From assembly GCA_020148055.1 (NCBI GenBank), contig JAHCRF010000001.1:5378-69377 (forward strand): a stretch of 64,000 bases of DNA, given 5' to 3'. The notes beneath the pieces were generated by a model. That model saw only the letters and a program-made list of their open reading frames with translations, made no database searches and was not told the DNA's origin. Position numbers and translations under genes: made by a program. The stretch's first letter is position 1. Each line of letters starts with the position of its first letter. Of the stretch, positions 34,588-63,776 are shown one piece after another. Origin of the DNA: Patescibacteria group bacterium. GTDB lineage: Bacteria > Patescibacteriota > Minisyncoccia > Minisyncoccales > JAHCRE01.

Positions 34588-34659
34588 AGCGGGTGATGGG
34601 AATCGAACCCACGTACGCGGCTTGGAAGGCCACTGCACTGACCACTGTGCTACACCCGC
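34588..34659 (-). tRNA. tRNA-Gly (anticodon UCC)
   Basis: Acceptor GCGGGTG/CACCCGC, anticodon stem GTGGC/GCCGC, loop CUUCCAA, T-loop GGTTCGATTCC. Confidence 0.85.
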
Positions 34660-34674
34660 AAATTTAATTTTTTG

Positions 34675-34745
34675 TCGGGGCACCCAGATTCGAACTGGGA
34701 CTAAATCCTCCCAAAGGACTCGTGCTACCGTTACACCATGCCCCG
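34675..34745 (-). tRNA. tRNA-Pro (anticodon UGG)
   Basis: Acceptor CGGGGCA/TGCCCCG, anticodon stem AGTCC/GGATT, loop UUUGGGA, T-arm CCCAG-TTCGAAT-CTGGG. Confidence 0.85.
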
Positions 34746-34825
34746 TCCTCTTCAACATATCAAGATTTCTCTTCCTAGTCAATTTATTTTGCTTGTTCTT
34801 TTTTAAATGTGCTATAATAAAAGTG

Positions 34826-35767: not shown

Positions 35768-35877
35768 ATTGTTCGGAAAGATAATTTTTGGTACCTACTT
35801 TTTCATTTAACCAAGCCGGACATCGTGCCTGCTTAGCTTAGTAGTCTCAAAAATTACTTTCCTGCTTTTACTAATTT

Positions 35878-36252
35878 ATGCCAAAAACTATATTATTTAT
35901 TGAAGATGAGTCGTCTCTTCAAGAAACTTTTAGAGGTATTTTAATAAGGGAAGGCTATGAAATGATTTCAGCTATGGATGGAGAAGAAGGCCTGAAATTA
36001 GCAAAAACTGAAAAACCAGATTTAATCCTCTTAGACCTTATTCTACCAAAAATTGATGGTTTTAAAGTTCTGAAGAGATTAAAAGAGGATCCCGAAACAA
36101 AAAAAACTCCAGTCATTATTTTAACCAATCTTGAAGATGTAGAGAATGTGAATAAAGCTCTTGAATTAGGAGCAACAACTTACTTAGTTAAGGCAAGTTA
36201 TAGCCCGGAAGAAATATTGGAAAAAATTAGAAGAATCTTAGGAGAACGCTAA
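35878..36252 (+). CDS. single-domain response regulator (CheY/PilH-like receiver)
   Basis: REC domain with phospho-acceptor context LILLDLILPKIDG. 124 aa and no output domain. Confidence 0.8.
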   Translation: MPKTILFIEDESSLQETFRGILIREGYEMISAMDGEEGLKLAKTEKPDLILLDLILPKIDGFKVLKRLKEDPETKKTPVIILTNLEDVENVNKALELGATTYLVKASYSPEEILEKIRRILGER

Positions 36253-36272
36253 AAAATTTTATAAGCCAAAAT

Positions 36273-38021: not shown

Positions 38022-38022
38022 A

Positions 38023-39243
38023 ATGCCAAAGTTTTTCTATACTGCTAAATCTTTTAAAGGAGAAATAAAATCAGGAATTTTAGAAGCCAAAGATGAGCAT
38101 CAGTTAGCTAGAACCCTTCGCCAGGAAGGATATATTTTAATTTCAACAAGTTTAGAAAAAGAGATTGGGAAAGGGAAATTTAAGATTTCCCTTCCTTTTT
38201 TTGGAGGAGTATCCTTGACCGAAAAAATGATGTTTACCAGAAATCTTCGGATAATGATTGCTGCCGGTATATCTCTGCCCCGGGCTTTAGAAACTTTAGC
38301 TTCGCAGTCAAAAAGTAAAAAATTCAAGAAGGCTTTATTAGACGTAGCTGATGAGATTACCAAAGGAAGAAGCTTTTCTGATTCTTTAACTAAATATTCT
38401 GATATTTTCTCCGAACTCTTTATTAGCATGATAAAAGTAGGAGAGGAGGCAGGAACTCTAGAAGAGGTTTTAAAAATTTTAACTAATCAGATGGAAAGAG
38501 AACATGAATTAGAATCTAAAGTTAAAGGTGCGATGATTTATCCGGCGGTTATTATTTTTACTATGATCGGTATTGGAGTTTTAATGCTGATTATGGTTGT
38601 TCCAAGATTGGCTGAGACTTTTGAGGAATTGGCAATCGAGCTTCCTCCGACCACTAAGTTGGTAATTTTCCTTGGTAATTTTTTGGCTGAGAAATGGGCT
38701 TTAGCTGTCTTAATAATTCTCGCCCTTTTAATTTTATTTAGGATAATTTTAAAAACAAAGAGAGGAAAAAGAACAACCGATTTTCTAACTTTAAGAATTC
38801 CTATCATCTCCCCCATTATTAGGAAAACTAATTCAGCCTATACTGTTAGGACCTTAGCTTCTCTTATTACCTCAGGAGTGCCAATTGTCCGGGCTTTGGA
38901 AATTGTCTCGGGAGCCCTGGGAAATATTTACTTTCAAGAAGCAATGGCAGACGCCAGCGAGAAAGTTAGAAAGGGTTCTAAACTTTCCGACGCCTTGAGA
39001 TCCCATGAAGGAGTTTATCCTTCATTAGTTATTCAGATGATTGAGGTAGGGGAAGAAACTGGAGAAACTTCGACTATCCTGGCTAAGCTGGCCGATTTTT
39101 TTGAAGAGGAGGTTACCAATGCTACCAAAAATTTAACGGCAGTTATTGAACCAATCTTAATGCTTCTTATCGGAGGGGCTGTAGGATTCTTTGCAATTTC
39201 AATGATTCAGCCAATATACGGGATGTTAGGAGCAGTAAAGTGA
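38023..39243 (+). CDS. pilC: type IV pilus platform protein PilC (GspF family)
   Basis: Two GspF repeats with three TM segments. 406 aa, immediately downstream of pilB. Confidence 0.85.
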   Translation: MPKFFYTAKSFKGEIKSGILEAKDEHQLARTLRQEGYILISTSLEKEIGKGKFKISLPFFGGVSLTEKMMFTRNLRIMIAAGISLPRALETLASQSKSKKFKKALLDVADEITKGRSFSDSLTKYSDIFSELFISMIKVGEEAGTLEEVLKILTNQMEREHELESKVKGAMIYPAVIIFTMIGIGVLMLIMVVPRLAETFEELAIELPPTTKLVIFLGNFLAEKWALAVLIILALLILFRIILKTKRGKRTTDFLTLRIPIISPIIRKTNSAYTVRTLASLITSGVPIVRALEIVSGALGNIYFQEAMADASEKVRKGSKLSDALRSHEGVYPSLVIQMIEVGEETGETSTILAKLADFFEEEVTNATKNLTAVIEPILMLLIGGAVGFFAISMIQPIYGMLGAVK

Positions 39244-40148
39244 ATTCAAAATTCAAAATTCAAAATTCAAAATTGAATGTCGGGGTTACTCTTGTTGAGT
39301 TAGTGGTGATTATTGGGATTTTAGTTATTTTAGCTCTCATATCTGCCCCGGTCTTCCGTTTTTTTCAAAAAGAGTCAGATTTAAATAATAACACTGAGGA
39401 AATTATCAATACCTTAAGATTTGCTCAAAATAGAACTCTGGCTTCTGAAGGAGCTAGTCAATACGGAGTCTATTTTGATAACACTACCTCTCCCCATCAA
39501 TATACCTTATTTAAGGGCACAGATTTTGCTTCTAGAGATAGTTCTTCTGATGAAATTCATAAATTAGCAAAAGCAGTAGAGTTTTATGAAATTAATTTAA
39601 ATGGAGGAAATGAGTTGGTTTTTGATCGAGTAACGGGGAAAACTAGCCAACCTGGTAATGTTTCTTTAAGATTAAAAGTAGATCTTACAAAAACTAAGAC
39701 TATCTACATTGAGAGTTCTGGTCAGGTGGGGCTGACTATCCCGTCAGTCCCTACTGATGGTCAAGTAGAAGATTCCAGGCATGTTCATTCTGATTTAGGA
39801 TGGAGTATTCAAAACTCCACTGCTTTAAAATTTTCTTTTCCCGATATCCCACAAGTAGAAACCATAGATATGGCTGATTATTTTAATACTGGTAAAACAG
39901 AATTTGATTGGGAAGGAACATTTTCTGTAGGCGGGATCGACCAAATATTCCGAGTTCATACCCATGCTCTTGATGCATTTAATACTCTTCTCTGTATTCA
40001 TCGTAATCGAAACGATGGGAAAAATAACCAAGAAGTAATAATTTATATTGTCGACGGGGGAATAGATAAAGATATCGCCCATTATTTAGCCGATGCAGTA
40101 GATACTGTGGAAAAAGGTTTTTATGTTAATACAATGGAAAGACAATAA
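39240..40148 (+). CDS. type IV pilin-like protein (prepilin N-terminus), 302 aa
   Basis: Leader ...KLNVG then VTLVELVVIIGILVILALI, with Glu at +5 after the putative G cleavage site. The start is ambiguous: GTG 39240 or TTG 39273. Confidence 0.65.
   Translation: MNSKFKIQNSKLNVGVTLVELVVIIGILVILALISAPVFRFFQKESDLNNNTEEIINTLRFAQNRTLASEGASQYGVYFDNTTSPHQYTLFKGTDFASRDSSSDEIHKLAKAVEFYEINLNGGNELVFDRVTGKTSQPGNVSLRLKVDLTKTKTIYIESSGQVGLTIPSVPTDGQVEDSRHVHSDLGWSIQNSTALKFSFPDIPQVETIDMADYFNTGKTEFDWEGTFSVGGIDQIFRVHTHALDAFNTLLCIHRNRNDGKNNQEVIIYIVDGGIDKDIAHYLADAVDTVEKGFYVNTMERQ
39244..39271 (+). repeat. heptanucleotide tandem repeat (ATTCAAA)x4 at the pilC stop / pilin start
   Basis: attcaaa x4 read directly from the sequence, followed by the degenerate unit attgaat. 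It overlaps the first codons of the GTG-initiated pilin ORF. Confidence 0.8.
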
Positions 40149-40608
40149 AAAGGGAATATCAGTCATAGAAATTCTAATAGTTATCGCTATTATTGGTATT
40201 GCTTTGACTAGTCTTTTAGGCGTAGCCGCCTTTTCTTTAAAGGTTTCCGTTTCAATAAAAGAGACCACTCAGGCCAATGCTTTAGCCCAGGAGATAATTG
40301 AGGCAGTCAGAAATTTTCGAGATGGAACAACTTGGGATAGTGATGGTCTAGGAACTTTAACCACCAGCCTTGCTTATTATCCTCAAAAAACAGCCGATAC
40401 TCCTCCAAAATGGACCCTAATTCAGGGCGAAGAAACAATTAATGGTTTCACTCGAAAAGTGATTTTTGCAGATGTTATGAGGGATGCCAGTGATAATATT
40501 GTCGGAACTGGTGGAATAAATGACCCCAATACAAAAAAGGTGACCGTAACTGTTTCCTGGAAAGATAAAAAGGTAGAAATAGTAACCTATTTTACTAACT
40601 GGAAATGA
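40123..40608 (+). CDS. type IV pilin-like protein, 161 aa
   Basis: Leader MLIQWKDNKKG then ISVIEILIVIAIIGIAL (class III signal, E+5). Overlaps the preceding gene by 26 nt. Confidence 0.65.
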   Translation: MLIQWKDNKKGISVIEILIVIAIIGIALTSLLGVAAFSLKVSVSIKETTQANALAQEIIEAVRNFRDGTTWDSDGLGTLTTSLAYYPQKTADTPPKWTLIQGEETINGFTRKVIFADVMRDASDNIVGTGGINDPNTKKVTVTVSWKDKKVEIVTYFTNWK

Positions 40609-41126
40609 TGAAGAAACCACTTCAAAGAAGTTTCACTTTAATGGAAATTTTAGTTTATATTGCAGTTCTTTCTATTGTAATTACGGCTATTGTCTCGTTT
40701 GTTCTCTGGTTTATTCATTCCAATACTAAAACTAAGGCAATGCGAGAAACCTTGGATAATGCAAGAAGAGTTATGGAAATAATGACCTATGAGATCAAAG
40801 AGGCAAGAAGCATTTATGCACCAACTACTACTTCTACTCAACTCTCTTTGGAAACAACAAAATATTTGCCAGAAGGAGAAGAGACAAGCTTCATTGATTT
40901 TTATCTTTGTGATTATCGTCTCTGTCTTAAAAAAGAATCCCGAGATTCAATTGCTTTAACTTCAGATAGTGTGGAAATAAATAATCTGGTTTTTACCCGA
41001 ATTGTCTCTGGAGAAGTCCCTTCTATCCAGATTGATTTAACAATTGATTACAAAAACCCAACTAATCGACCAGAATATCAAGCCTCAGTTGGTTTAAAAT
41101 CAACTGTCTCTTTAAGAGAGTATTAA
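40605..41126 (+). CDS. type IV pseudopilin-like protein, 173 aa
   Basis: MMKKPLQRS then FTLMEILVYIAVLSIV hydrophobic N-terminus with E+5. Ser rather than Gly at -1. Confidence 0.55.
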   Translation: MMKKPLQRSFTLMEILVYIAVLSIVITAIVSFVLWFIHSNTKTKAMRETLDNARRVMEIMTYEIKEARSIYAPTTTSTQLSLETTKYLPEGEETSFIDFYLCDYRLCLKKESRDSIALTSDSVEINNLVFTRIVSGEVPSIQIDLTIDYKNPTNRPEYQASVGLKSTVSLREY

Positions 41127-41127
41127 A

Positions 41128-42936
41128 ATGTTAAATCTAAAAAAACAAAAAGGATTCGCCGCCTTCTTTATAACGATTTTAGTTTTAGTTGTAATGATGG
41201 GTATTGCTATTAGCATTACAGTTTTGAGCTTAGGTGAACATAAAATTTCAAGAAACATTACTAAATCTAACCAGGCCTATTATGTTGCCGAAGCCGGGAT
41301 TGAAGATAGTATTTATCGGATTATAAAAGGAAAAAATTATCAGGCAACTAATAGTCTGGTAGTAGAAGAGGGAACAGCAACTATCAGTATCACTGATGAA
41401 GATAGTTCGAAAGTTATTAAATCTAGCGGTGCAGTTTCTCAGAGGATTAGAAAATTAAGCACCACTCTTACCACTGAGACGATAACCATAGCTTTCCATT
41501 ATGGTGCCCAAGTGGATAGAGGAGGATTACAAATTCAGCCCAACGCTAGAGTGGTTGGAAATGTTTATTCCAACGGAAGCATTATGGGAAGCGGAACTGG
41601 TTTTGATTTCAGCGAAGTTTGTGAAAGTGGTGTTGCCTGTATTACTGGCGATGCCTGGGTGGCTGGAGGGGTAGCTCCTAATCCAGACCAAGAGTGGACT
41701 AGCCAAGATTCTGATTTTTCGTTTGGTTTGAAAATCGGCCCAGTTGATTACCTTGATACTGCCCAGAGCTTCGTTCCTTCTGAGTCAGAAGTATTAAATA
41801 TAGTCAGTCTTTATTTGAAAAAAGTCGGTGAGCCTCCCGATCAGACTGTTAGAATTTTGATTGATAATGGAGGTTCTCCATCTAATACTTCCTTGGCCTC
41901 AGGCACATTAAAAGCTTCAAAAGTGACTTCAAATTACGGCTGGATTGACGTGAGCCTTGATCCTCCGCCGAGCTTAACCGCCGGCCAAACTTATTGGATT
42001 ATGATTGATGTTGCTAGAGATGATGATAATCATTGGATCTGGGGAAAAGATAGCACGGATGGGTACCCCCTTGGAACTGGAAAATATACAAAGGATTGGA
42101 CAAAGTCCGATGCTGTATGGGCAGAGGTCGGCGGTGATTTAAACTTTAAAACCTGGATGGGAGGAATAATTACTTATATGGATGGAACCTGGGTTGGGGT
42201 TAATGCTTATGCTAATACCATTACCGATTCAAATATCACTGCTGATGCTTATTACCAATCCATTGAAAATACTGTTGTTTATGGAACAAGCTATCCTGGA
42301 AGTCCTGACCCACCAACCAAGGATTTACCAATTTCTTATGCTCAAATTCAAGATTGGGAGGCAGCGGCTGAGGCAGGAGGAGTAATTGGGGGAAGTTATA
42401 ATCCTCCTGATGGTTCCTCTCTGGGTCCGATAAAAATAAACGGCAATCTAACTTTCCCAAGTAATGGGACGGTGACGATCGAGGGACCAGTCTGGGTGAC
42501 AGGAAAAATTTTAGCCGAAAATAATGTCACCATTAAACTCAAAGAAGGTTTAACTTCTGGTTATACAATAATTGCCGATAATCCTTCTGACCAGGCAGGT
42601 TTTGGTCAGATAGAGCTTAATAATAATGTGATTACTCAAGATTCTCCCCAAGGTGGCAAACTCCTTTTTATTGCAACAAATAAATCTACTTCTATTGCTA
42701 ATCCATCCATTTGGCTTCATAACAACGTTAATCAAGAATTAGCTCAATCCATTATTTTGAGTCTCCATGGAACAATAAAAGTTGAAAATAATGTTAAATT
42801 TAAAGAAATAACCGGCTATGCAATATATTTGGCAAATAATGCTGAGATTGTTTATGAAATCGGTTTAATCAATGCTGGTTTTTCTTCTGGACCAGGAGGA
42901 GGTTGGGAAGTGACCAATTGGAAAGAAATTGAGTAA
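41128..42936 (+). CDS. large PilX-like minor pilin (602 aa)
   Basis: N-terminus GFAAFFITILVLVVMMGIAISITVLSLGEHKISRNITKSNQAYYVAEAGIED resembles the PilX N-terminal domain, followed by a large extracellular region. Confidence 0.5.
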   Translation: MLNLKKQKGFAAFFITILVLVVMMGIAISITVLSLGEHKISRNITKSNQAYYVAEAGIEDSIYRIIKGKNYQATNSLVVEEGTATISITDEDSSKVIKSSGAVSQRIRKLSTTLTTETITIAFHYGAQVDRGGLQIQPNARVVGNVYSNGSIMGSGTGFDFSEVCESGVACITGDAWVAGGVAPNPDQEWTSQDSDFSFGLKIGPVDYLDTAQSFVPSESEVLNIVSLYLKKVGEPPDQTVRILIDNGGSPSNTSLASGTLKASKVTSNYGWIDVSLDPPPSLTAGQTYWIMIDVARDDDNHWIWGKDSTDGYPLGTGKYTKDWTKSDAVWAEVGGDLNFKTWMGGIITYMDGTWVGVNAYANTITDSNITADAYYQSIENTVVYGTSYPGSPDPPTKDLPISYAQIQDWEAAAEAGGVIGGSYNPPDGSSLGPIKINGNLTFPSNGTVTIEGPVWVTGKILAENNVTIKLKEGLTSGYTIIADNPSDQAGFGQIELNNNVITQDSPQGGKLLFIATNKSTSIANPSIWLHNNVNQELAQSIILSLHGTIKVENNVKFKEITGYAIYLANNAEIVYEIGLINAGFSSGPGGGWEVTNWKEIE

Positions 42937-42960
42937 AAATTTTAAATTCAAAATTTCAAA

Positions 42961-42990
42961 TGTGGCCTAGGGCCACTTTTTATTTTTATT
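42961..42990 (+). terminator. hairpin terminator after the pilX-like gene
   Basis: GTGGCC-TAG-GGCCAC followed by TTTTTATTTTT. Confidence 0.5.
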
Positions 42991-43014
42991 TTTAATGATA
43001 TAATTAATTAGAAA

Positions 43015-44214
43015 ATGTTTGAATTTTTAACTTTAAAATCAGAAGCTTTTGGTTTAGATATTTCTGATTTATCTTTAAAGATTATAAAGCTCAAAAGAAA
43101 GCGGAAATTTTTGGGTCTGGCTTCTTTTAATAAAGCTGAGATAAAACCAGGAATTATTGAAAACATTGAAATTAAAGATGAGGAGGCCTTAGCTAATATT
43201 ATCAAAGAGGCAATTTCTAAAGTTGAGGGGGAAAAAATCAAAACAAAATACGTTGTTGCCTCTTTACCCGAAGAGAAAGCATTTTTGCAGGTAATTCAGA
43301 TGCCATTAATGAAAGAGGAGGAATTAAAAAAGGCAGTTTACTTTGAGGCAGAAAACTATATCCCTTTACCAATTGAAGAAGTTTATTTGGATTTTCAAAT
43401 AGTTAAGCCGATTTTTAATCATTTAGACCACCTTGATGTTTTAATTGCTGCTATGCCCAAGAAAATTGTTGATTCCTATATTTCTTGTTTAAAAAAAGCA
43501 GGTTTGGTTCCCAAAGTTCTGGAAGTTGAATCCCAGGCCATTGCCCGAGCCTTAATCAAGAATGAAGTTATTCCTTTCCCCCTTCTTTTAATTGATCTAG
43601 AAGCAACCAGAACCAGTTTTATTATGTTTTCAGGTTACAGTTTAAGGTTTACCGCCTCTATTCCTGTTTCTTCTCAGAAATTTACCGGAGCTATTTCTAA
43701 GGTTTTGAAAGTTGATTTGAAGGAAGCTGAAAAATTAAAAATAAAATACGGATTACGAGAAAAGCACCAGTTAAAAACTGAAAATAGTACAAAGAAAGAA
43801 ATAGGGAGAGGAAAAATTTTTGAAGCAATAGCTCCTCTTTTAAGGGATTTAATTGAGCAAATTAAAACCTATCTTGTTTATTATCGTACCCATGTTCATC
43901 ATGAACATCTCCCCGTTGATGCTAAAGAAGTTGAAAAAATTTTCCTTTGTGGAAAAGGAGCCAACCTTAAAGGACTTTCTGATTTTCTTTCCTTGGAACT
44001 AAAAATTCCAGTTGAGTTAGGTAACCCTTGGGTAAATATTTTACCAGAACCTCTCAAGGAAGTACCAGAGCTACCTTTTGAGACATCTCTTGGTTATACT
44101 ACTGCTTTAGGTTTAGCATTGAGGGGAGTCCAACCCACCCAGGGAGGAGGTCTCGTCGCGCTTGGCGAGAAGGCCTCTCGCGTCATGATCGCCCCCACTA
44201 AAGCAAGCCCCTAA
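43015..44214 (+). CDS. pilM: type IV pilus assembly protein PilM (actin-like ATPase fold)
   Basis: 399 aa with an FtsA/PilM-like pattern. Begins the pilM-N-O set. Confidence 0.75.
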   Translation: MFEFLTLKSEAFGLDISDLSLKIIKLKRKRKFLGLASFNKAEIKPGIIENIEIKDEEALANIIKEAISKVEGEKIKTKYVVASLPEEKAFLQVIQMPLMKEEELKKAVYFEAENYIPLPIEEVYLDFQIVKPIFNHLDHLDVLIAAMPKKIVDSYISCLKKAGLVPKVLEVESQAIARALIKNEVIPFPLLLIDLEATRTSFIMFSGYSLRFTASIPVSSQKFTGAISKVLKVDLKEAEKLKIKYGLREKHQLKTENSTKKEIGRGKIFEAIAPLLRDLIEQIKTYLVYYRTHVHHEHLPVDAKEVEKIFLCGKGANLKGLSDFLSLELKIPVELGNPWVNILPEPLKEVPELPFETSLGYTTALGLALRGVQPTQGGGLVALGEKASRVMIAPTKASP

Positions 44215-44220
44215 AAAATT

Positions 44221-44742
44221 ATGATTAATCTTTTACCGCCAAAAGAAAGAGAGAATTTAATTCAAGAAGAAAATTGGAAATTGGTTTTAATTTTAGGAAT
44301 CCTTTTTTTATCTCTTTTAATGTGTTTGATTTTAATTTTACTTTCGATTCAGATTTATAACTCTGGAAAAATTCAATCTCAGAAAGTTATTATTGAGATT
44401 GGGGAAAAAGAGTTTGAAGATCCAGAGACTCAAAATTTTCGGAAAAAAATTATTTTAATTAATCAAAATTTTTCGAAATTAAATTCTTTTTATCAGAGTC
44501 AGACTAATTTGATTGAGATTTTGGAAAAAATCTCGGGAACTTTTCCTGAAGAGATATATTTAACCTCCCTTTCTTATCAAAAAGAGAATCTCCAAATTTC
44601 CCTCTCAGGATATGCTCCCAACCGCGAGGTCTTAGTTGGATTTAAGAAGAATCTTGAAAAAGAATTTCCAGATGCCCATTTTTCACCCCAAAGTTGGTTT
44701 GAACCAACCGATTTTCAAGTAAATTTCAAAATTGTTCAATGA
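44221..44742 (+). CDS. pilN: PilN-like bitopic membrane protein
   Basis: Single N-terminal TM after a short cytoplasmic MINLLPPKERE, a conserved PilN-type start. 173 aa. Confidence 0.55.
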   Translation: MINLLPPKERENLIQEENWKLVLILGILFLSLLMCLILILLSIQIYNSGKIQSQKVIIEIGEKEFEDPETQNFRKKIILINQNFSKLNSFYQSQTNLIEILEKISGTFPEEIYLTSLSYQKENLQISLSGYAPNREVLVGFKKNLEKEFPDAHFSPQSWFEPTDFQVNFKIVQ

Positions 44743-45299
44743 AATTGAAGCCCGAGAGAAAAATTTATCTATCTTTAATAATTTTTGGAATAATAACTAT
44801 TTTATTAATTATTTTGATAATTCACCCCCTTTTTAAAGGAATCCAAAAAAATTCTGAAGAGTTCATTTCTCAGAAAAAGAAGTTAATTTTGCTCCAAGAA
44901 GAAATGAAAAGTCTCAAAGAAACAGAGGTTCTTTATAAAACCTATCAAACCAATATAGATAAAATTGATGATCTTTTTGCTGATCCGGAAGTCCCGATTG
45001 AATTCATCGAGTTTTTAGAAAAAAATGCGGAGAAATCTCAACTCTCAATTAAGATTTCTCTAATGGCTAGAAAAGAAACGGAGCCCTGGCCTAGTCTTTT
45101 TTTTCAAATCTCAACTGTTGGTTCTTTTCCTAATCTCTTAAAATTTTTAGAGAAATTAGAAGCTAGTTCTTATTTAATTGAAATTTCAGATTTGAACGTA
45201 AAAAGATTAACTGAAAAAGAGCTTCAATCAGACGAATTCAGAACTTTTTCCCTTGGTGATGTTTATACTATGTTTTTAATAAAAGTTCTCACCAAATGA
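44739..45299 (+). CDS. pilO: PilO-like bitopic membrane protein
   Basis: Single TM plus coiled-coil. Translationally coupled to pilN (4-nt overlap). 186 aa. Confidence 0.5.
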   Translation: MKLKPERKIYLSLIIFGIITILLIILIIHPLFKGIQKNSEEFISQKKKLILLQEEMKSLKETEVLYKTYQTNIDKIDDLFADPEVPIEFIEFLEKNAEKSQLSIKISLMARKETEPWPSLFFQISTVGSFPNLLKFLEKLEASSYLIEISDLNVKRLTEKELQSDEFRTFSLGDVYTMFLIKVLTK

Positions 45300-45300
45300 A

Positions 45301-45416
45301 AAGTCGCGGCACGCGACGGTCGCTCTTGCGACCGCGCTAACACCGCTCCTTAAAACCCATCGGTTTTAATCTTTCCGCTACGGGAAAACACCCAGTTTTC
45401 CCGACCCCTTTCTAAA
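45301..45416 (-). repeat. GC-rich ~115-nt intergenic element, copy A (inverted relative to copy B at 62003-62122)
   Basis: The reverse complement shares AGAAAGGGGTCGGGAAAACTG(A/G)GTG and CGGAAA(G/T)ATTAAAACCGATGGGTTTTAAGGAGCGG with 62003-62122. Contains hairpins CGGGAAAAC/GTTTTCCCG and AAAACC/GGTTTT. Confidence 0.55.
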
Positions 45417-52912: not shown

Positions 52913-52986
52913 TGGGCGGCATAGGACTCGAACCCATAACCTCCGCGATGTAAGCGCGACGCTCTAACCATTGAGCTAGCCGCCCC
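52913..52986 (-). tRNA. tRNA-Val (anticodon UAC)
   Basis: Acceptor GGGCGGC/GCCGCCC, anticodon stem TCGCG/CGCGG, loop CUUACAU, T-arm ATGGG-TTCGAGT-CCTAT. Confidence 0.85.
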
Positions 52987-52995
52987 TTTTCTTGC

Positions 52996-53082
52996 TGGTG
53001 CCCAGGGCGGGACTCGAACCCGCAAGGGGTTACCCCCACTACCACCTCAAGGTAGCGAGTTTTCCAATTTCTCCACCTGGGC
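52996..53082 (-). tRNA. tRNA-Leu (anticodon GAG), type II, CCA encoded
   Basis: Acceptor GCCCAGG/CCTGGGC, anticodon stem CTACC/GGTAG, loop UUGAGGU, long variable arm, T-arm CGGG-TTCGAGT-CCCG, then ACCA. Confidence 0.8.
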
Positions 53083-53787
53083 GAACTGACTTTGTTCGTT
53101 ATAATTTATATTTATTTGGAAAATTTTTCGAGCTTTTTCATATTTTCGTTGTAAAAAAGGAATATTATCTGAATAAAACATTTTATTAAACAGAATAACG
53201 CTCTCTTCCTTTGCATATCTTAAGAGATAAGTATTGTTACCCGCAGACCCAATACTTCCGTTTAATCTACAGAGATTCTTAATCTTTTCTTGTAGCCATT
53301 TAAGAAAATTAAGACTTGCTGAGGAAAACGCAATGTAAAACATAAAACTACTATGCCATCGAGAATCCCAAAACGAGTAAATTGTTCCATCGCCATCAAA
53401 ACACCCTCTTAGAAAATCAAAGAAATATTTATTCGGAATTTCAAGCTTAGAAATTGCTTTTGATTTATTAGGCATTAATCCAATTTTCAGAAGCCATTTA
53501 TAAAGTTTGACATTACTAAATTGAATGCGGGGATATCTTTTATCTGTAGATCCGCTTGTTTTTGTCCCAATCTCCACATCGATTAAATTCATACATTTCT
53601 TAAAAGTTTTCACTAATTGGATATCATTAGACGTAAACTCAAGATGTCTACCATCTTTAGATAAATTTCCATCGGTAGTTAATAATCCAATCGCATAAGC
53701 GAATTCAGGAGTCAATTTTATCTTATAATTTTTATTTTTCTGACTTCCTCTCATTTTTATTTTTTTATTATTTTTGATTCTAACCAA
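53047..53787 (-). CDS. free-standing double-motif LAGLIDADG homing endonuclease
   Basis: First motif FAYAIGLLTTDGNL; second motif FLRGCFDGDGTI. About 246 aa with the usual two-half architecture. The last 36 nt of the ORF overlap the 5' part of tRNA-Leu(GAG). Confidence 0.7.
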   Translation of the reverse strand: MVRIKNNKKIKMRGSQKNKNYKIKLTPEFAYAIGLLTTDGNLSKDGRHLEFTSNDIQLVKTFKKCMNLIDVEIGTKTSGSTDKRYPRIQFSNVKLYKWLLKIGLMPNKSKAISKLEIPNKYFFDFLRGCFDGDGTIYSFWDSRWHSSFMFYIAFSSASLNFLKWLQEKIKNLCRLNGSIGSAGNNTYLLRYAKEESVILFNKMFYSDNIPFLQRKYEKARKIFQININYNEQSQFAQVEKLENSLP

Positions 53788-58237: not shown

Positions 58238-58900
58238 TTGGCAAACATGCAGATTACTTGGTATGGTCAATCTTTTTTTCGAATTTTGACTCAGAAAGGA
58301 AAAAATAATCAAGTTAACCTTGTTATCGATCCCTTTAACGAGACTATTGGATTACGGCCTCCAAAACTCGAGGCTGATATTTTGTTAATCACTCATCAGC
58401 ATTCAGATCATAACAATCTTCTGGCAGTTTCAGGAAACCCTTTTGTTATTTCAGGTCCCGGCGAATATGAAATAAAAGGAGTCTTTATTCAGGGGATTCC
58501 ATCTTTCCATGATAATGTTAGAGGAAAAGAACGAGGTCTAAATACTATTTATACTATAGAGACCGAAGAAATTCGACTTTGTCATTTAGGAGATTTGGGC
58601 CAAAAAGAATTAGATTCTGAACAACTTGAAAAAATAGGCGATATCGATATTTTAATGATTCCCATAGGTGGAGTTTATACAATTTCAGCAAAAGAAGCTT
58701 CAAAAGTAATTTCCCAATCAGAACCCAAGATTGTTATTCCAATGCATTATCAGATTCCAAAGTTGAAAATCAAATTAGAGGGACTAAATAAATTTTTAAA
58801 GATGATGGGAATAAAGACACCTGAAATCTTAAAGAAGTTTTTGATTAAAAAGAAAGATCTGGCAGCTGAGGGGATGAAAATTATTATTTTAAAACCCTAA
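58238..58900 (+). CDS. MBL-fold metallo-hydrolase
   Basis: HxHxDH motif (ITHQHSDHNN). 220 aa. Confidence 0.7.
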   Translation: MANMQITWYGQSFFRILTQKGKNNQVNLVIDPFNETIGLRPPKLEADILLITHQHSDHNNLLAVSGNPFVISGPGEYEIKGVFIQGIPSFHDNVRGKERGLNTIYTIETEEIRLCHLGDLGQKELDSEQLEKIGDIDILMIPIGGVYTISAKEASKVISQSEPKIVIPMHYQIPKLKIKLEGLNKFLKMMGIKTPEILKKFLIKKKDLAAEGMKIIILKP

Positions 58901-58971
58901 ACCGAGCACGTAGAAGAATTATACGCTTCGGTCAAATGATTTTTTTTGGAACATCCTAAAAGAAAACAAAA

Positions 58972-61449
58972 ATGGTCAATAAATCACCAAAATTAAAAAA
59001 TGAAATAGGCTATATTAAACCGCGTGAGATTACTGAGGAGATGAAGGAAAGTTATATTGACTATGCTATGTCAGTTATTATCTCTCGGGCTCTACCTGAT
59101 GTCAGAGATGGGATGAAGCCGGTCCATCGTCGGATTTTGTATTCAATGTATGAGATGGGTTTAAGACATGATGCAAAATTTAGGAAGTCAGCAGCTACTG
59201 TCGGTCAGGTAATTGCTGCTTATCATCCTCATGGAGACATTCCAGTTTACGATGCTTTGACTAGAATGGCTCAAGATTTTTCATTAAGATATCCTTTAAT
59301 TAATGGTCAAGGAAATTTTGGTTCAATCGATGGTGACCCTAGTGCTGCCATGAGATACACTGAAGCCAAACTTTCAGAAGTTGGTGAGGAAATGCTAAGA
59401 GATATTGGAAAAGATACGGTTGATTTTGTTGATAATTATGATGGAACCAGAAAAGAACCAGTGGTCTTGCCTTCACCTTTACCCCAACTTCTTTTAAATG
59501 GTTCTCTCGGGATTGCCGTAGGTATGGCAACCAATATTCCTCCTCATAATCTTTCTGAGGTTGCAGATGCCGCAATCTATTTACTCTCGCACTCAAAAGC
59601 TGATACCGAGGATCTCTTTGAATTTGTCAAAGGGCCTGATTTTCCAACCGGTGGGGAAATTTATGGTCAAAAAGAAATAATTACTGCCTATTCCCAAGGG
59701 AAGGGCCCGATTGTTACTCGAGGAAAGACAGAAATTATTCGTGGAGAAGGAGGTAAAACTAAAATTGTAATTACTGAAATTCCCTTTCAGGTTCAAAAAT
59801 CAAATTTAGTTAAGCAATTTGCTAAGTTGGTCCAAGAAAAAAGAGTCAAAGGGATAAAGGATATCAGAGATGAATCTGATAAGGAAGGTCTAAGAATTGT
59901 TATTGACCTTTCTCGAGAGGCCTATCCTCGGAAAATCTTAAACCAACTTTATAAATTCACCGATCTACAGAAAACCTTTCACTTAAATATGTTAGCCCTA
60001 GTTGATGGAATTCAGCCGAGGGTTTTAAGTTTGGCTGATCTTTTAAATTATTATCTTTCTCATCGGAAAAAAGTAATTTTTAGGAGAACCAAATATGATT
60101 TAGAAAGAGCTAAAGAAAGAGCTCATATTTTAAAAGGATTAAATAAGTGTTTAGGAAAGATTGATCAGGTCATTAAAACGATAAAAGCTTCTAAAGATCG
60201 GAAAGAAGCTGAGAAAAATTTAATAAAAAGATTTAAAGTAACCAAGATTCAGGCCTCGGCCATTTTAGAGACGAAGTTATCTGCTTTGGCAAAATTAGAG
60301 AGAAAGAGAATTGAGGAAGAACTTAAAGAAAATTTGACCAAAATTAAAGAATTCAAAAAAATTCTTAAAAGTCCCAAAAAGATAAAGGAAATTATTGAAA
60401 GAGAGTTAAAAGGACTCAAAGAAAAGTTTGCTGGCAAGAGAAAAACAAAGGTGATTTCTAAAAAAATTGAAGAAATAGCCTTGGAAGATTTAATTCCCCA
60501 GGAGGAAACAATCATCACCTTAACTCAGGGTGGTTATATTAAAAGGATAAATCCCAAAAGTTATAAAATTCAGAAAAGAGGAGGTAAAGGAATTTTAGGA
60601 ATGAAGACTTTACAGGAAGATATTGTTGAGCATTTCCTTTTAGCTAAAACTCATGATTCTTTACTTTTCTTTACCGATTCGGGAAAGGTTTTTAAAATCT
60701 TAGTTTATGAAATTCCTGAGGCAACGAGAGTAGCCAGGGGTCGAGGTCTTTTGAATTTTCTGGAAATTTCTTCTCGGGAGAAGGTTTTAACTCTTTTACC
60801 TTTAAGTAAAAAAGATTTAGAGTTGGGGATAAAATATTTAGTAATGATTACTCGAAATGGTATAATTAAAAAAACAGAGATTTCTGAATTTGAGAATGTT
60901 CGGAGATCGGGATTAATTGCCATTTCGCTTAAAAAGGGTGATCTTTTAAAAAAGGTTCAAAAGAGTACGGGGGATGATGGAGTGATTTTGGTAACTAAAA
61001 AAGGCCAATCTATTCGATTTAAAGAAAAAGAGATTAGAGGGATGGGAAGACCGGCTTCTGGAGTAAAAGGAATTAAATTAGGAAAAGAAGATAGGGTAGT
61101 AGGAATGGACATAATAAGGTCAAAGGTCAAAGGTCAAAGGTCAAAGGTCAAAGAACATCTTTTGGTGGTTACGGGAAATGGCTATGGGAAAAGGACGGAT
61201 TTGCGAGAATACCGATTGCAGGGGAGAGGAGGCTTTGGGATTAAAACAGCTAAAATTACTTCAAAGACCGGCGATTTAGTTTTTTCAAAATTATTAACCA
61301 CCGAAGAAGATTTAATTGTAATTTCTCAAAGAGGCAAAGTAATTAGGATTAAAATTGCCTTAATTCCAAAATTCTCACGGATTACCCAAGGAGTGAAAAT
61401 TATGAAATTAGAAGAAGGAGATTGGGTCGCTTCCGCAACCTGTATCTAA
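58972..61449 (+). CDS. gyrA: DNA gyrase subunit A
   Basis: N-terminal GyrA signature (AAMRYTEAKL), active-site region and a C-terminal beta-pinwheel domain. 825 aa. Confidence 0.95.
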   Translation: MVNKSPKLKNEIGYIKPREITEEMKESYIDYAMSVIISRALPDVRDGMKPVHRRILYSMYEMGLRHDAKFRKSAATVGQVIAAYHPHGDIPVYDALTRMAQDFSLRYPLINGQGNFGSIDGDPSAAMRYTEAKLSEVGEEMLRDIGKDTVDFVDNYDGTRKEPVVLPSPLPQLLLNGSLGIAVGMATNIPPHNLSEVADAAIYLLSHSKADTEDLFEFVKGPDFPTGGEIYGQKEIITAYSQGKGPIVTRGKTEIIRGEGGKTKIVITEIPFQVQKSNLVKQFAKLVQEKRVKGIKDIRDESDKEGLRIVIDLSREAYPRKILNQLYKFTDLQKTFHLNMLALVDGIQPRVLSLADLLNYYLSHRKKVIFRRTKYDLERAKERAHILKGLNKCLGKIDQVIKTIKASKDRKEAEKNLIKRFKVTKIQASAILETKLSALAKLERKRIEEELKENLTKIKEFKKILKSPKKIKEIIERELKGLKEKFAGKRKTKVISKKIEEIALEDLIPQEETIITLTQGGYIKRINPKSYKIQKRGGKGILGMKTLQEDIVEHFLLAKTHDSLLFFTDSGKVFKILVYEIPEATRVARGRGLLNFLEISSREKVLTLLPLSKKDLELGIKYLVMITRNGIIKKTEISEFENVRRSGLIAISLKKGDLLKKVQKSTGDDGVILVTKKGQSIRFKEKEIRGMGRPASGVKGIKLGKEDRVVGMDIIRSKVKGQRSKVKEHLLVVTGNGYGKRTDLREYRLQGRGGFGIKTAKITSKTGDLVFSKLLTTEEDLIVISQRGKVIRIKIALIPKFSRITQGVKIMKLEEGDWVASATCI
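61116..61150 (+). repeat. heptanucleotide tandem repeat (AAGGTCA)x5 inside the gyrA coding sequence
   Basis: Five perfect 7-nt units encoding RSKVKGQRSKVK. Confidence 0.8.
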
Positions 61450-61472
61450 ACTGTTTGAACTTACACTTTAAA

Positions 61473-61997
61473 CATATGGAATTTTTAAATCCACAAGAAG
61501 TTTTAAATCAATTGGAATTAGAGGGTGATATGATTGCTGCTGATTTTGGTTCAGGTTCTGGCGGCTGGGCAATACCTTTGGCAAAAAGATTGAAATTTGG
61601 AAGAGTCTATGCTATTGATATTTTAGAGGAGCCTCTTTCAGCTCTTAAAAGTAAGGGAGAGATTGAAAGAGTTTTCAATATTGAGACTGTACGTTCTAAT
61701 GTGGAAGCAAAACAGGGTTCAAAGCTTGCCGATTCTTTTTGCGATTTAGTTCTAATAACCAATCTCTTGTTTGAAGCAAAGGATAAAAAGATAATTATGG
61801 ATGAAGCAAAAAGAGCTTTAAAAAAGAAAGGAAAAATTTTAGTTGTTGATTGGTTTCCCGAAGCTCCTCTTGGTCCAAAAGAAGGCAGAGTTTCAGCTGC
61901 CGACGTTAAAAAAATAGCTCAAGATTTAAATTTAAAATTAGAAAAAGAATTTAAAGCCGGAGCTTACCATTATGGCTTAATATTTATAAAGCCATAA
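61473..61997 (+). CDS. class I SAM-dependent methyltransferase
   Basis: Motif I IAADFGSGSGGW. Start set at ATG 61473 (MEFLNPQE) to avoid overlap with gyrA. Confidence 0.6.
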   Translation, partial: HMEFLNPQEVLNQLELEGDMIAADFGSGSGGWAIPLAKRLKFGRVYAIDILEEPLSALKSKGEIERVFNIETVRSNVEAKQGSKLADSFCDLVLITNLLFEAKDKKIIMDEAKRALKKKGKILVVDWFPEAPLGPKEGRVSAADVKKIAQDLNLKLEKEFKAGAYHYGLIFIKP

Positions 61998-62002
61998 TGA
62001 GA

Positions 62003-62122
62003 GAAAGGGGTCGGGAAAACTGAGTGCAGGGGCCCGCAAAGCGGGAGGGTGGTGGGTGGGTTGGAGTCCCGTGGCGGAAATATTAAAACCGATGGGTTTT
62101 AAGGAGCGGAGCGACCATTAGT
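62003..62122 (+). repeat. GC-rich ~120-nt intergenic element, copy B (with G-rich insert)
   Basis: Shares both flanking blocks with the reverse complement of 45301-45416. The internal insert contains GGGAGGGTGGTGGGTGGGTTGG (62043-62064). It ends in AAAACCGATGGGTTTTAAGGAGCGG. Confidence 0.55.
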
Positions 62123-62174
62123 GTTTAGTCTTTACTAAATTATAGTCTTTGCTAAAATTAACTAATATTTGTTT

Positions 62175-62510
62175 ATGAAGCCTTATCTAATTAAAAAAAT
62201 AATTTTTCCAATACTTTTATTCTCTTTTTTGATACCTTTTTTGGCTGAGGGAATAGTAATTCCCAACCCTCTTGATGCTACTACATTTGAAGAGTTGATT
62301 GAAAAACTTATTGATCTCATTTTTTGGGTTGCTGTAGCCATTACTCCCCTTATGATTATTGTTGCCGGTTTTTATTTTGTAACAGCAGCTGGTGATCCAG
62401 AAAAAATTAGGAAAGCTAAAAATATAATTTTATGGACAATAGTCGGACTTGCTATAGTTTTACTTGCCAAAGGAATAATTTCTATGATAAGACAAATAAT
62501 AGGAGGATAA
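62175..62510 (+). CDS. small secreted VirB2/TrbC-like pilin-family protein (signal peptide + two TM hairpin)
   Basis: Signal peptide, then LIDLIFWVAVAITPLMIIVAGFYFVTAAGDPEKIRKAKNIILWTIVGLAIVLLA. The G-DPEK loop between two helices is shared with the 20570-21718 and 62581-63621 proteins. Confidence 0.45.
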   Translation: MKPYLIKKIIFPILLFSFLIPFLAEGIVIPNPLDATTFEELIEKLIDLIFWVAVAITPLMIIVAGFYFVTAAGDPEKIRKAKNIILWTIVGLAIVLLAKGIISMIRQIIGG

Positions 62511-62580
62511 AATTAAAAAGTGAAACCTAAGATTTAAAAATACAAAGGTCGAGGAAATAATAAACAATAAACAATAAACA

Positions 62581-63036
62581 ATGAATAATATGAGAAAAAT
62601 TATTTCAGTTCTAATCTTAGCTGCTTTGCTTTTACCCCTAGTTGCTTTAGCTCAGATAGAGGTAAAGGAGTGCTGTACTCTTCATAAAACAATTACAGTT
62701 GAGGGAGACACCTGTGCCGAAGGTGATGTAGCAGCTCCTGATGCAGCAGCAGCTGCAGATTGTGCAGGAGCCTACTGTGCAGCTTCAGCAGATGCTTGGG
62801 GAATGTTTTGTCTTTTAAATAGCATTTACCGAGTTACTGACTGGGTCTCTTACATCTTATTTGCTTTTGTTGGAGTGATGATAATTATTGGAGCCTTTAC
62901 AATTGTTACAGCTGGTGGATCGCCCGACAAGGTGTCTTCTGGAAGAAATTACATTGTGTATGCGATCATTGGTTTAGTAGTTGCCTTTTTTGCCAGGGCT
63001 ATTCCTGCTCTTGTCAAGGCAGTGATAGGAATGTAA
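62581..63036 (+). CDS. Cys-rich secreted VirB2/TrbC-like pilin-family protein, paralogue 1
   Basis: Signal peptide ending ALAQ; six-Cys ectodomain; conserved LLNSIYRVTDWVSY; two TM helices separated by TAGGSPDKVSSGRN. Confidence 0.5.
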   Translation: MNNMRKIISVLILAALLLPLVALAQIEVKECCTLHKTITVEGDTCAEGDVAAPDAAAAADCAGAYCAASADAWGMFCLLNSIYRVTDWVSYILFAFVGVMIIIGAFTIVTAGGSPDKVSSGRNYIVYAIIGLVVAFFARAIPALVKAVIGM

Positions 63037-63656
63037 AGAGAGAAAAATTTGGTAAATTTTAACTTCTTGTTCGGAGAGAATAAGAGATTTTGATTGAATT
63101 CGAAATGCAGAGAGTTGAGCAAAATAACTTCCGGCTTTAGAGTCTGCGGTCCAAGAAACAATATGAGCAAAATTATTTTAGTTTTAGCTTTGGTAAGTTT
63201 ATTGAGCCTCTTGCTTTTACCAATGGTAGCCTTGGCTCAGATAGAAATAAAGGAGTGCTGTACTCTTCATAAAACAATTACAGTTGATACGGTTACCTGT
63301 AACGAAGATACTGTGGCAGCTCCTGATGCAGCAGCAGCTGCAGATTGTGCAGGAGCCTACTGTGCAGCTTCAGCAGATGTTTGGGGAATGTTTTGTATTT
63401 TGAATACTATTTACCGAGTTACTGACTGGGTCTCTTACATCTTATTTGCTTTTGTTGGAGTGATGATAATTATTGGAGCCTTTACAATTGTTACAGCTGG
63501 TGGATCGCCCGACAAGGTGTCTTCTGGAAGAAATTACATTGTGTATGCGATCATTGGTTTAGTAGTTGCCTTTTTTGCCAGGGCTATTCCTGCTCTTGTC
63601 AAGGCAGTGATAGGAATGTAAAGAGAGAAAAATTTGGTAAATTTTAACTTTCTATT
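62641..63656 (+). repeat. tandem direct duplication (two ~430-nt copies at a period of about 590 bp) spanning the two Cys-rich pilin-like genes
   Basis: 62722-63068 and 63310-63656 are almost base-for-base identical, including the shared 3' flank TAAAGAGAGAAAAATTTGGTAAATTTTAACTT. The 5' portions are diverged. Confidence 0.7.
63163..63621 (+). CDS. Cys-rich secreted VirB2/TrbC-like pilin-family protein, paralogue 2 (tandem duplicate)
   Basis: C-terminal about 100 aa and the 3' UTR are nearly identical at DNA level to 62581-63068. The N-terminal ectodomain segment differs (DTVTCNEDTVA versus EGDTCAEGDVA). Start placed at ATG 63163 (MSKIILV). Confidence 0.5.
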   Translation: MSKIILVLALVSLLSLLLLPMVALAQIEIKECCTLHKTITVDTVTCNEDTVAAPDAAAAADCAGAYCAASADVWGMFCILNTIYRVTDWVSYILFAFVGVMIIIGAFTIVTAGGSPDKVSSGRNYIVYAIIGLVVAFFARAIPALVKAVIGM

Positions 63657-63776
63657 TAGAAAGAATGAATGTTTTGATTTAATCAATCCCGCCAAGGGGT
63701 TGATTTTTTAATATTAAAAAGATAAGGTAAAATAGATGGATGTAGCTGAATTGGAATAGGCATCCTCTACCAAATT

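Follow-up and report, generated by a model that had tools for sequence, protein, structure and literature searches.

Three tandem pilin-like genes

The DNA analysed here is a 64-kb stretch (the window) of a 137-kb contig in a Patescibacteria metagenome-assembled genome (MAG), and it represents ordinary chromosome around the replication origin. Three neighbouring open reading frames (ORFs) lie on its + strand at 62175-62510, 62590-63036 and 63163-63621, and all three are annotated by NCBI as 'hypothetical protein'. We consider it likely that they form a chromosomal, operon-like array of three VirB2-like pilin genes of a type IV secretion system (T4SS; family PF18895) in a Paceibacteria-type patescibacterium, with products that would be assembled by this system and with a history of gene conversion. 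The genes are as follows.

62175-62510 (+): pilin gene 1, KJA14_00435, 111 aa, ATG at 62175; signal peptide, very short ectodomain and hairpin with a GDPEK loop
62590-63036 (+): pilin gene 2, KJA14_00440, 148 aa, ATG at 62590 (the start given by NCBI); hairpin with a GSPDK loop
63163-63621 (+): pilin gene 3, KJA14_00445 (P0001, MBZ9578312.1), 152 aa, ATG at 63163; paralogue of gene 2

An alternative ATG for gene 2 is present at 62581, and the homologous start of gene 3 is the ATG at 63163 and not the TTG at 63094 given by the ORF finder. Each product is composed of a basic and hydrophobic N-terminal segment resembling a Sec-type signal peptide, which ends in FLA-EG or ALA-QIE, followed by an ectodomain and two long hydrophobic helices. 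The acidic N-terminal ectodomain is nearly absent in gene 1 and comprises about 52 residues with six cysteines in genes 2 and 3. The loop joining the helices is AAGDPEKIRKAKN in gene 1 and AGGSPDKVSSGRN in genes 2 and 3. For gene 2, an AlphaFold2 model based on 38 homologues has a mean predicted local distance difference test (pLDDT) value of 81.4 and consists of a helix at residues 3-24, a small β ectodomain, a helix at 73-109, a short loop and a helix at 115-148. The signal peptide and helix-loop-helix architecture of PF18895 is seen both in this model and in the alignment of all copies. Cys32 and Cys77 are invariant across 74 homologues of gene 2. Gene 1 belongs to a short type, which stands first in most of the related arrays.

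Family assignment

All three genes score above the gathering cut-off of PF18895 (T4SS_pilin; 26.6 bits), with 52.0, 40.1 and 41.1 bits for genes 1, 2 and 3, respectively. By hhalign, gene 1, as the short type, is a homologue of the long type represented by genes 2 and 3 (probability 99.8%, E = 5e-28). A single-sequence search of 1.84 billion cluster representatives returned 3,896 representatives of 50%-identity clusters with E <= 1e-3, and 410 with E <= 1e-10. The gene 1 orthologue at L067 (related loci in other assemblies carry L numbers) has precomputed matches to T4SS_pilin and, weakly, to TrbC.

A tblastn search of plasmids with gene 1 gave only four weak matches (E = 0.2-0.6), all on genes annotated as pilin-like, which led to a profile comparison with the pilin-like genes of Firmicutes conjugation clusters. 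This comparison is significant for both types: the short type reaches an hhalign probability of 97.7% (E = 1.6e-12) and the long type one of 97.2% (E = 2.9e-11), and the hmmsearch scores are 46.7 and 40.9 bits. The relatives are WP_224202731.1 of Macrococcus pJEK46-1 (RefSeq 'TrbC/VirB2 family protein') and WP_207531472.1 of a Pontibacillus megaplasmid (RefSeq 'Mbov_0395 family pilin-like conjugal transfer protein'), which sit inside monoderm conjugation clusters with a CD1115 VirD4 or a CD1110 VirB4. We file the genes under PF18895. They can be called VirB2-like by their architecture and by a chain of similarity through monoderm pilin-like proteins, and not as demonstrated members of PF04956 (TrbC/VirB2).

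Two further proteins, P0075 (606 aa) and P0106 (820 aa), string together 7-8 successive hairpin modules, whose loops all follow the pattern G(G/D)(N/P)-x-x, in one polypeptide and are in effect pilin arrays fused into a single ORF.

Mosaic divergence of genes 2 and 3

The second and third genes are 89% identical and constitute a direct repeat of 585 nt. The features of the repeat are listed below.

62701-62728 (+): divergent ectodomain patch of gene 2 (EGDTCAEGDV); the gene 3 counterpart is 63286-63313 (DTVTCNEDTV)
62824-63065 (+): copy A of the identical tract, which covers the 3' end of gene 2 that encodes the hairpin and 29 nt past the stop codon
63380-63408 (+): five sites differing between assemblies, at the 5' boundary of the identical tract in gene 3
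63409-63650 (+): identical tract, copy B, in gene 3; 242-nt exact match to 62824-63065

Within the patch, 13 of the 28 nt differ, and identical sequence lies on its flanks; six of the seven differing codons are non-synonymous. The stretch 62729-62823 has only 5 mismatches between the copies, and the signal peptides have diverged and differ in addition by a 4-codon indel. Synonymous (dS) and non-synonymous (dN) divergence between the two genes was calculated codon by codon by the Nei-Gojobori method, with the following values along the gene.

Signal peptide: dS 1.09 (9 of 15.7 synonymous sites), apart from the indel
First 16 mature codons: dS 0.11
10-codon patch: dS 0.69, dN 0.54
Next 32 codons after the patch: dS 0.09
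69-codon hairpin: dS 0 (0 of 52.3 synonymous sites)

The difference in synonymous divergence between signal peptide and hairpin is significant (Fisher P = 2e-7). Since constraint at the protein level cannot erase synonymous differences, the gene pair combines old segments with very young ones in a mosaic. The nucleotide identity of the signal peptides is 71% between the copies and 57-78% to the genes of other genomes, whereas that of the hairpin is 99% between the copies and 80-85% between genomes. The strongly heterogeneous dS along the gene, together with a sharply bounded identical tract, is the signature of gene conversion. Genes 2 and 3 are best read as paralogues of older date in which gene conversion, a recurrent process in the family, has recently made the 3' part uniform; the signal peptide and the 10-codon patch have retained or regained divergent sequence. 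Exact tracts of 67-122 nt are found in the hairpin part of paralogues at five other loci (L027, L008, L002, L016 and L024), and both types of patch (xDTVTCN and xEGxTC) are present among the homologues of other genomes.

The dN/dS of the patch is about 0.8, on ten codons. A metagenome scan for closer relatives yielded a best locus of 57% identity, which left the patch without the population sample that a dN/dS test requires. A diversity-generating retroelement was considered as the origin of the patch and rejected: the differences are not adenine-specific, and no reverse transcriptase is present among the annotated ORFs of the window. As a tentative and rather doubtful extension, the hairpin-coding 3' half might act as a recombination anchor, with repeated conversion, possibly across strains, shuffling ectodomain cassettes and signal-peptide ends. 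If this were true, the shifting boundary of the tract described below and the recurrent exact tracts elsewhere would be its footprints, and the epibiont would vary its pilus surface to tune host range or to evade host recognition.

The tandem arrangement is not an assembly artefact, because it is reproduced in two other assemblies. The three genes recur in L071, an 87-kb contig assembled from a different sample that can be aligned collinearly with the window along 6,838 nt; L001, a 640-nt contig of a third assembly, comprises the tail of gene 2, the spacer and gene 3 (window span 62999-63638). Only 5 mismatches in the 6,838 nt separate the window from L071 (at 63380, 63397, 63402, 63407 and 63408; 6218-6246 in L071). 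All five switch gene 3 to the state of gene 2, and L001 keeps the state of the window. This switch is either a polymorphic boundary of the conversion tract or the result of bubble-popping by the assembler.

Two other origins of the gene pair have to be weighed. A recent tandem duplication of the whole gene, followed by diversifying selection on the signal peptide and the patch, would account for a repeat unit that spans the whole gene plus flanks and for the mostly non-synonymous differences in the patch. However, selection at the protein level cannot yield a dS of about 1.1 in the signal peptide, 0.69 in the patch and 0 in the hairpin, and the patch dN/dS of about 0.8 also speaks against it. 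The signal peptides of the two copies are as diverged as those between genomes, and L067 already has two long paralogues, of which the one in third position shares the extended signal peptide of gene 3. We regard such a duplication as quite unlikely. Far less credible still is a layout in which the assembler placed two strain alleles of one gene in tandem. That idea draws on the origin of the window from a MAG and on the re-assembly of a related sample, which breaks at the repeat (L073 ends at 62690 and L001 begins at 62999). Against it, the spacers 5' of gene 2 and gene 3 are unrelated in sequence, L001 crosses the junction from the tail of gene 2 into gene 3, L071 carries all three genes, and at least two long pilins also occur in L067 and in many of the loci L002-L042. 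Gene conversion between older paralogues is the explanation that we prefer.

An earlier note on this DNA (the original prediction) had described three tandem genes with a signal peptide, an ectodomain and a helix-loop-helix, which is correct in every particular. Its assignment of the genes to a pilin family agrees with PF18895, whose cut-off is passed by genes 1-3, and with a sub-threshold PF04956 match of gene 1. The copies 2 and 3 do have near-identical 3' ends and differ mainly in the signal peptide and the Cys-containing patch, as it had stated. To explain this, it had offered either gene conversion or duplication with diversifying selection. Conversion is the better supported, while the segment-wise comparison that it had proposed revealed strong heterogeneity and a patch dN/dS not above 1, so that selection finds no support. 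The duplication could not be upheld as recent, with a dS of about 1.1 in the signal peptide against 0 of about 52 sites in the hairpin.

A conserved chromosomal site

A comparative scan with one genome per species yielded 41 related loci, in which all six-frame ORFs were scanned with hidden Markov models. All 41 are from Patescibacteria, with the labels Paceibacterota, Parcubacteria, Nealsonbacteria and Minisyncoccia, and they include the cultivated Ca. Microsyncoccus archaeolyticus, of which PMX.50 carries this array as well (L015). Tandem pilin ORFs, from 2 to 6 in number, are present in 37 of them: 2 genes in 19 loci, 3 in 14, 4 in 2, and 5 and 6 in one locus each. The usual array is led by a short pilin of the gene 1 type, which is followed by 1-4 long pilins. 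Among the relatives with context, L067 is the closest (68-72% identity); its equivalent array encodes 111, 146 and 155 aa, and the arrays of L068 and L069 encode 110, 127 and 148 or 151 aa.

The upstream neighbourhood is also conserved. Upstream sequence of more than 700 nt is available for 33 loci. In 30 of these, a class I S-adenosylmethionine (SAM) methyltransferase gene is located immediately 5' of the array and often abuts or overlaps the first pilin gene, and in 29 of the 33, gyrA lies within 1.5 kb 5', usually after the same gene for a metallo-β-lactamase (MBL)-fold hydrolase as in the window. The order of MBL-fold hydrolase, gyrA, methyltransferase and pilin array (58238-61997 in the window for the genes preceding the array; L002-L042) is conserved across a class-level lineage. 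This conservation of gene order and array across the related loci marks the array as an ancient locus that has been passed on vertically and does not belong to a mobile element. The methyltransferase might be linked to the array in function, for instance by modifying the pilins. The neighbouring features are listed below.

61476-61997 (+): class I SAM methyltransferase (Pfam Methyltransf_11/25); conserved upstream neighbour of the array, an association only
62131-62158 (+): promoter-like site 5' of gene 1 (TTTACT, 16 nt, TAAAAT, with TG), by consensus scan only
63681-63705 (+): terminator-like hairpin and T-run after gene 3, by consensus scan only

The block GTCTTTACTAAA of the promoter-like region is conserved upstream of the arrays in L008 and L063. 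The consensus scan found a terminator-like hairpin after gene 3 and none after gene 2, so genes 2 and 3 are probably co-transcribed.

Between the methyltransferase gene and the promoter-like site lies a GC-rich repeated intergenic element (61998-62130, +), in a genome of 35% GC. A second copy in the window (45343-45413, -) is inverted and located between two + strand genes, and further copies are found in L008 (1-120 and 8233-8274), L052 (2379-2459), L053 (90-170), L068 (278-355) and L063 (3745-3831). Conserved blocks, GAGAAAGGGGTCGGGAAAACTGAGTG and CCCGTGGCGGAAATATTAAAACCGATGGGTTTTAAGGAGCGGAGCGACC, flank a variable GC-rich insert. The element contains a small hairpin, AAAACC-N4-GGTTTT, with a compensatory change from A-T to G-C in other copies. 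Six of the approximately 10 copies lie 75-250 nt 5' of the first pilin gene (in L063, of the matched pilin gene). The GC-rich segment 5' of gene 1 was also considered as a structured leader RNA; it has no Rfam match and a minimum free energy z-score of about 0, and we discarded this assignment in favour of the repeated intergenic element.

Secretion genes and other contents of the window

The window contains a second group of T4SS genes at 2.4-5.3 kb and a fourth gene with a pilin domain.

2371-2790 (+): PrgI family (VirB3-like) T4SS protein; PF12666, 34.4 bits (cut-off 27)
2797-3444 (+): TrsD-like ORF of 215 aa resembling the VirB4 N-terminus; weak matches to NF045975 (E = 2.6e-7), NF045971 (positions 2-80) and TrsD (E = 8.7e-4)
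3467-5275 (+): VirB4-like T4SS ATPase of the CD1110 family, 602 aa; NF045971, 352.9 bits (cut-off 325), with P-loop_TraG and AAA_10
20570-21718 (-): fourth pilin-domain gene, 382 aa; C-terminal PF18895 hairpin, 47.6 bits; NCBI 'TrbC/VirB2 family protein'

The VirB4 ORF spans positions 166-734 of the NF045971 model, and the 215-aa ORF weakly matches the missing N-terminal positions. The VirB4 ORF lies 2.3 kb upstream of dnaA (7589) and is followed by khpB, yidC, rnpA, dnaA and dnaN in this order. A split TrsD and VirB4 adjoining dnaA is the typical arrangement in Patescibacteria (PMC12102498). These genes are an intact monoderm-type T4SS core (VirB3/TrsD/VirB4) on the same contig as the array.

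The 382-aa protein comprises a signal peptide, a Cys-rich ectodomain of about 290 aa with a DTSGS motif resembling a metal ion-dependent adhesion site (MIDAS), and the C-terminal hairpin; its TrbC match is sub-threshold (E = 2e-3). A von Willebrand factor A (vWA) domain was considered for this ectodomain and not accepted, as VWA and VWA_2 match only below threshold (E = 0.02-0.03) at the MIDAS region. Hairpins are also fused to other large ectodomains in related loci, in L026 (666 aa, with a ChitinaseA_N/fn3-like region) and L037 (538 aa), and others are without a Pfam match. Such fusions may be minor pilins that bear adhesins.

A type IV pilus locus, a second filament system that is unrelated to the T4SS pilins and separate from the T4SS, lies at 36.3-45.3 kb and encodes PilB, PilC, N-methyl pilins, PilX_N, PilM and PilN. 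The whole region (34622-45299) begins with a histidine kinase and a response regulator and continues with a complete-looking type IV pilus operon, which also contains ORFs of 302 and 186 aa without a Pfam match, two N-methyl pilins and a PilX_N protein of 602 aa. Elsewhere, a LAGLIDADG_3 ORF (53047-53787, -; E = 2e-7) is the immediate neighbour of tRNA-Val(tac) and shares about 36 nt with the start of tRNA-Leu(gag) (tRNA genes at 52913-53082); it may be a free-standing homing-endonuclease-like gene. An ORF of 535 aa without a family match (15761-17368, -) encodes, in this order, a long coiled-coil-like region rich in E and K, about 90 residues rich in proline (GC-rich patch 16041-16200) and a single C-terminal transmembrane helix.

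Proposed role of the array

From the biology of VirB2 and the literature, we infer that the pilins would be inserted into the membrane by the Sec pathway, with the acidic ectodomain outside and the basic, K/R-containing loop in the cytoplasm. They would then be extracted and polymerised by the monoderm-type T4SS of 2.4-5.3 kb (PrgI/VirB3, the TrsD-like ORF and VirB4). The product would be a pilus or a conduit spanning the cell wall, with the variable ectodomains displayed outward, and it may serve contact or exchange with a host cell. With a homogenised hairpin, subunits that differ at their surface would still be able to co-assemble. This mechanism is proposed because a pilin array together with the T4SS is essential in Ca. 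Southlakia epibionticum (PMC12857230 and PMC12102498, as they cite Wang et al. 2023), VirB2-like (PF18895) genes are found near virB4 in 1,135 Patescibacteria assemblies (PMC12102498), and pCF10 conjugation requires PrgF, a VirB2-like protein that has been both modelled as a pilus and probed as such (bioRxiv 10.64898/2025.12.18.695078).

Several results weigh against a T4SS pilin array. PF04956 (cut-off 27.9 bits) matches gene 1 only below threshold, with 20.4 bits (E = 6e-4), and does not match genes 2 and 3 at E <= 1. The scores for NF045849, the Mbov_0395 family of pilin-like conjugal transfer proteins (curated cut-off 40 bits), are 33.3, 16.0 and 15.8 bits for genes 1-3, all below the cut-off. 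The hhalign probability is 1% (E = 0.055, with a thin template profile of Neff 1.85) against four VirB2/TrbC proteins of Agrobacterium, Sinorhizobium and Acetobacter, and 0.5%, again not significant, against PrgF of pCF10. Fold searches are uninformative, as helical hairpins match thousands of proteins, and the sequence profile retrieved only G-protein-coupled receptor transmembrane noise among PDB chains. The array lies about 57 kb from virB4 in the window, outside the range of +/-20 coding sequences (CDS) within which pilin genes have been counted as near virB4; all 41 related loci are free of VirB4 and PrgI homologues to a distance of 10 kb from the array; and neither VirB6 nor VirD4 was detected in the 64-kb window. 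The apparently shifting conversion boundary in L071 could be bubble-popping. Lastly, none of the patescibacterial T4SSs has been shown to form a pilus or filament, so the steps of assembly are inferred.

These results also bear on the wider claims of the original prediction. It had taken the VirB4/VirB3 genes for a remnant; the VirB4 passes the CD1110 cut-off, the ORF upstream matches the VirB4 N-terminus and TrsD, and the split beside dnaA is the normal arrangement (PMC12102498). For the fusion at 20.6 kb, the C-terminal pilin domain is solid, but the vWA part comes down to the sub-threshold matches at the MIDAS region. The profile searches that it had suggested, including PF04956, gave no significant link to canonical VirB2 and a significant one to the pilin-like genes of Firmicutes conjugation clusters. 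The pilus or secretion system that it had called possibly uncharacterised has been described, since T4SSs and VirB2-like arrays of Patescibacteria are already known (PMC12102498 and PMC12857230).

The hairpin could also be seen as a general module for membrane anchoring or surface display that is unrelated to T4SSs, in which case the products of the array would neither polymerise nor need VirB4. The array is never near virB4 in this lineage and is placed among housekeeping genes, the hairpin is fused to large unrelated ectodomains (vWA-like in the window, ChitinaseA_N/fn3-like in L026 and others without a Pfam match), single polypeptides with 7-8 hairpin modules exist, and the fold searches are non-specific. 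Nevertheless, the profile similarity to pilin-like genes embedded in conjugation clusters is significant, and both the many assemblies with PF18895/VirB2-like genes near virB4 and the joint essentiality of array and T4SS in Ca. Southlakia epibionticum connect the family with secretion, so we judge an anchoring module unlikely. The fallback of the original prediction, small secreted peptides of a bacteriocin, holin or lipoprotein type, would suit small, Cys-rich products with a signal peptide encoded in tandem, and it can be set aside as extremely improbable: a lipobox is lacking, no bacteriocin, holin or immunity family of Pfam or NCBIfam matches at E <= 1, every significant match is to a pilin family, and the genes occupy one chromosomal site conserved across a class-level lineage. 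An array of T4SS pilins is the interpretation that we retain.

Few systems have been shown to be indispensable to Patescibacteria as epibionts, and the T4SS with its pilin array is one of them. This established picture is unchanged by our results, which add three modest points. In Paceibacteria-type genomes the array has a fixed place in the chromosome, which is distant from virB4 and is preceded by gyrA and a methyltransferase gene. The hairpin halves seem to be exchanged by conversion while the surfaces remain distinct, as expected if subunits must co-assemble and yet present different surfaces. Finally, the nearest detectable relatives outside the phylum are the pilin-like genes of Firmicutes conjugation clusters, which fits a monoderm origin of the pilin as of the ATPase. 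The last point agrees with the PrgF preprint, according to which Gram-positive T4SSs do have VirB2-like proteins (bioRxiv 10.64898/2025.12.18.695078).

Comparison with known systems

The products resemble canonical VirB2/TrbC proteins (PF04956; the T-pilin of Agrobacterium) in their small size and long signal peptide and in the short charged loop between two hydrophobic helices. They differ in missing the gathering cut-off, in the non-significant alignment to four Rhizobiaceae and Acetobacter VirB2 proteins, in the monoderm host and in having no evidence of cyclisation. With PrgF of pCF10 they share the design of a hairpin protein in an MPF_FATA T4SS with a CD1110-type VirB4 and PrgI (bioRxiv 10.64898/2025.12.18.695078); unlike the window pilins, PrgF has no signal peptide or ectodomain, is single-copy and has no detectable sequence similarity to them. 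Within PF18895, genes 1-3 and the 382-aa fusion score above the cut-off over the hairpin. The model covers only this hairpin of about 70 aa, and the Cys-containing ectodomain of genes 2 and 3 is a feature of the subfamily.

The similarity to NF045849 and the Firmicutes TrbC/VirB2 genes extends over the hairpin, including the GDP-x-K loop, and the Pontibacillus protein shares the signal peptide and a Cys-containing ectodomain of comparable length. Both the Firmicutes genes and the window genes belong to a monoderm T4SS setting, which is marked by a CD1110 VirB4 or CD1115 VirD4 in the Firmicutes clusters. However, the Firmicutes pilin-like genes are single-copy and are located on mobile elements beside the ATPases. 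In the exchange of sequence between pilin copies, the gene pair recalls the gene conversion of pilE and pilS in Neisseria; the window differs in having no silent cassettes, no demonstrated switching and no evidence of adaptive variation. Multiple pilin paralogues with differing surface parts are also found in the VirB2 arrays of Bartonella and Anaplasma (PMC12102498).

The closest counterparts are the arrays of Patescibacteria themselves. Tandem VirB2-like arrays have already been catalogued in this phylum, with 441 arrays of 2-11 genes and an MPF_FATA-like T4SS near dnaA (Quinonero-Coronel et al. 2025, PMC12102498), and the array of the window adds to them; the essential array of Ca. Southlakia epibionticum has six pilins (Wang et al. 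2023 as cited in PMC12857230). In that catalogue an array is defined as at least 2 pilin genes, in tandem or one non-pilin gene apart, in a genome encoding VirB4; the window has three adjacent pilin genes with VirB4 on the same contig (3467-5275). The likeness includes tandem pilins of the PF18895 type on the chromosome, without a relaxase context and with divergent ectodomains among the paralogues, as well as an MPF_FATA-like core (PrgI, TrsD and VirB4) that adjoins dnaA. Pilin genes were located within +/-20 CDS of virB4 in 1,135 of 1,948 assemblies, so proximity is not obligatory (PMC12102498). The array of the window differs in its distance from virB4 and in its site after gyrA and the methyltransferase gene, which is not mentioned there. 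It differs also in the identity of its paralogues: the mean within-array identity in the catalogue is 25% and the maximum is 54%, compared with 89% and a 242-nt exact tract for the pair in the window, 83% in L008, 74-77% in L016 and 72% in L029. The conserved site at gyrA and the methyltransferase gene, identities well above 54% and the evidence for concerted evolution of the hairpin half are three points that are absent from PMC12102498.

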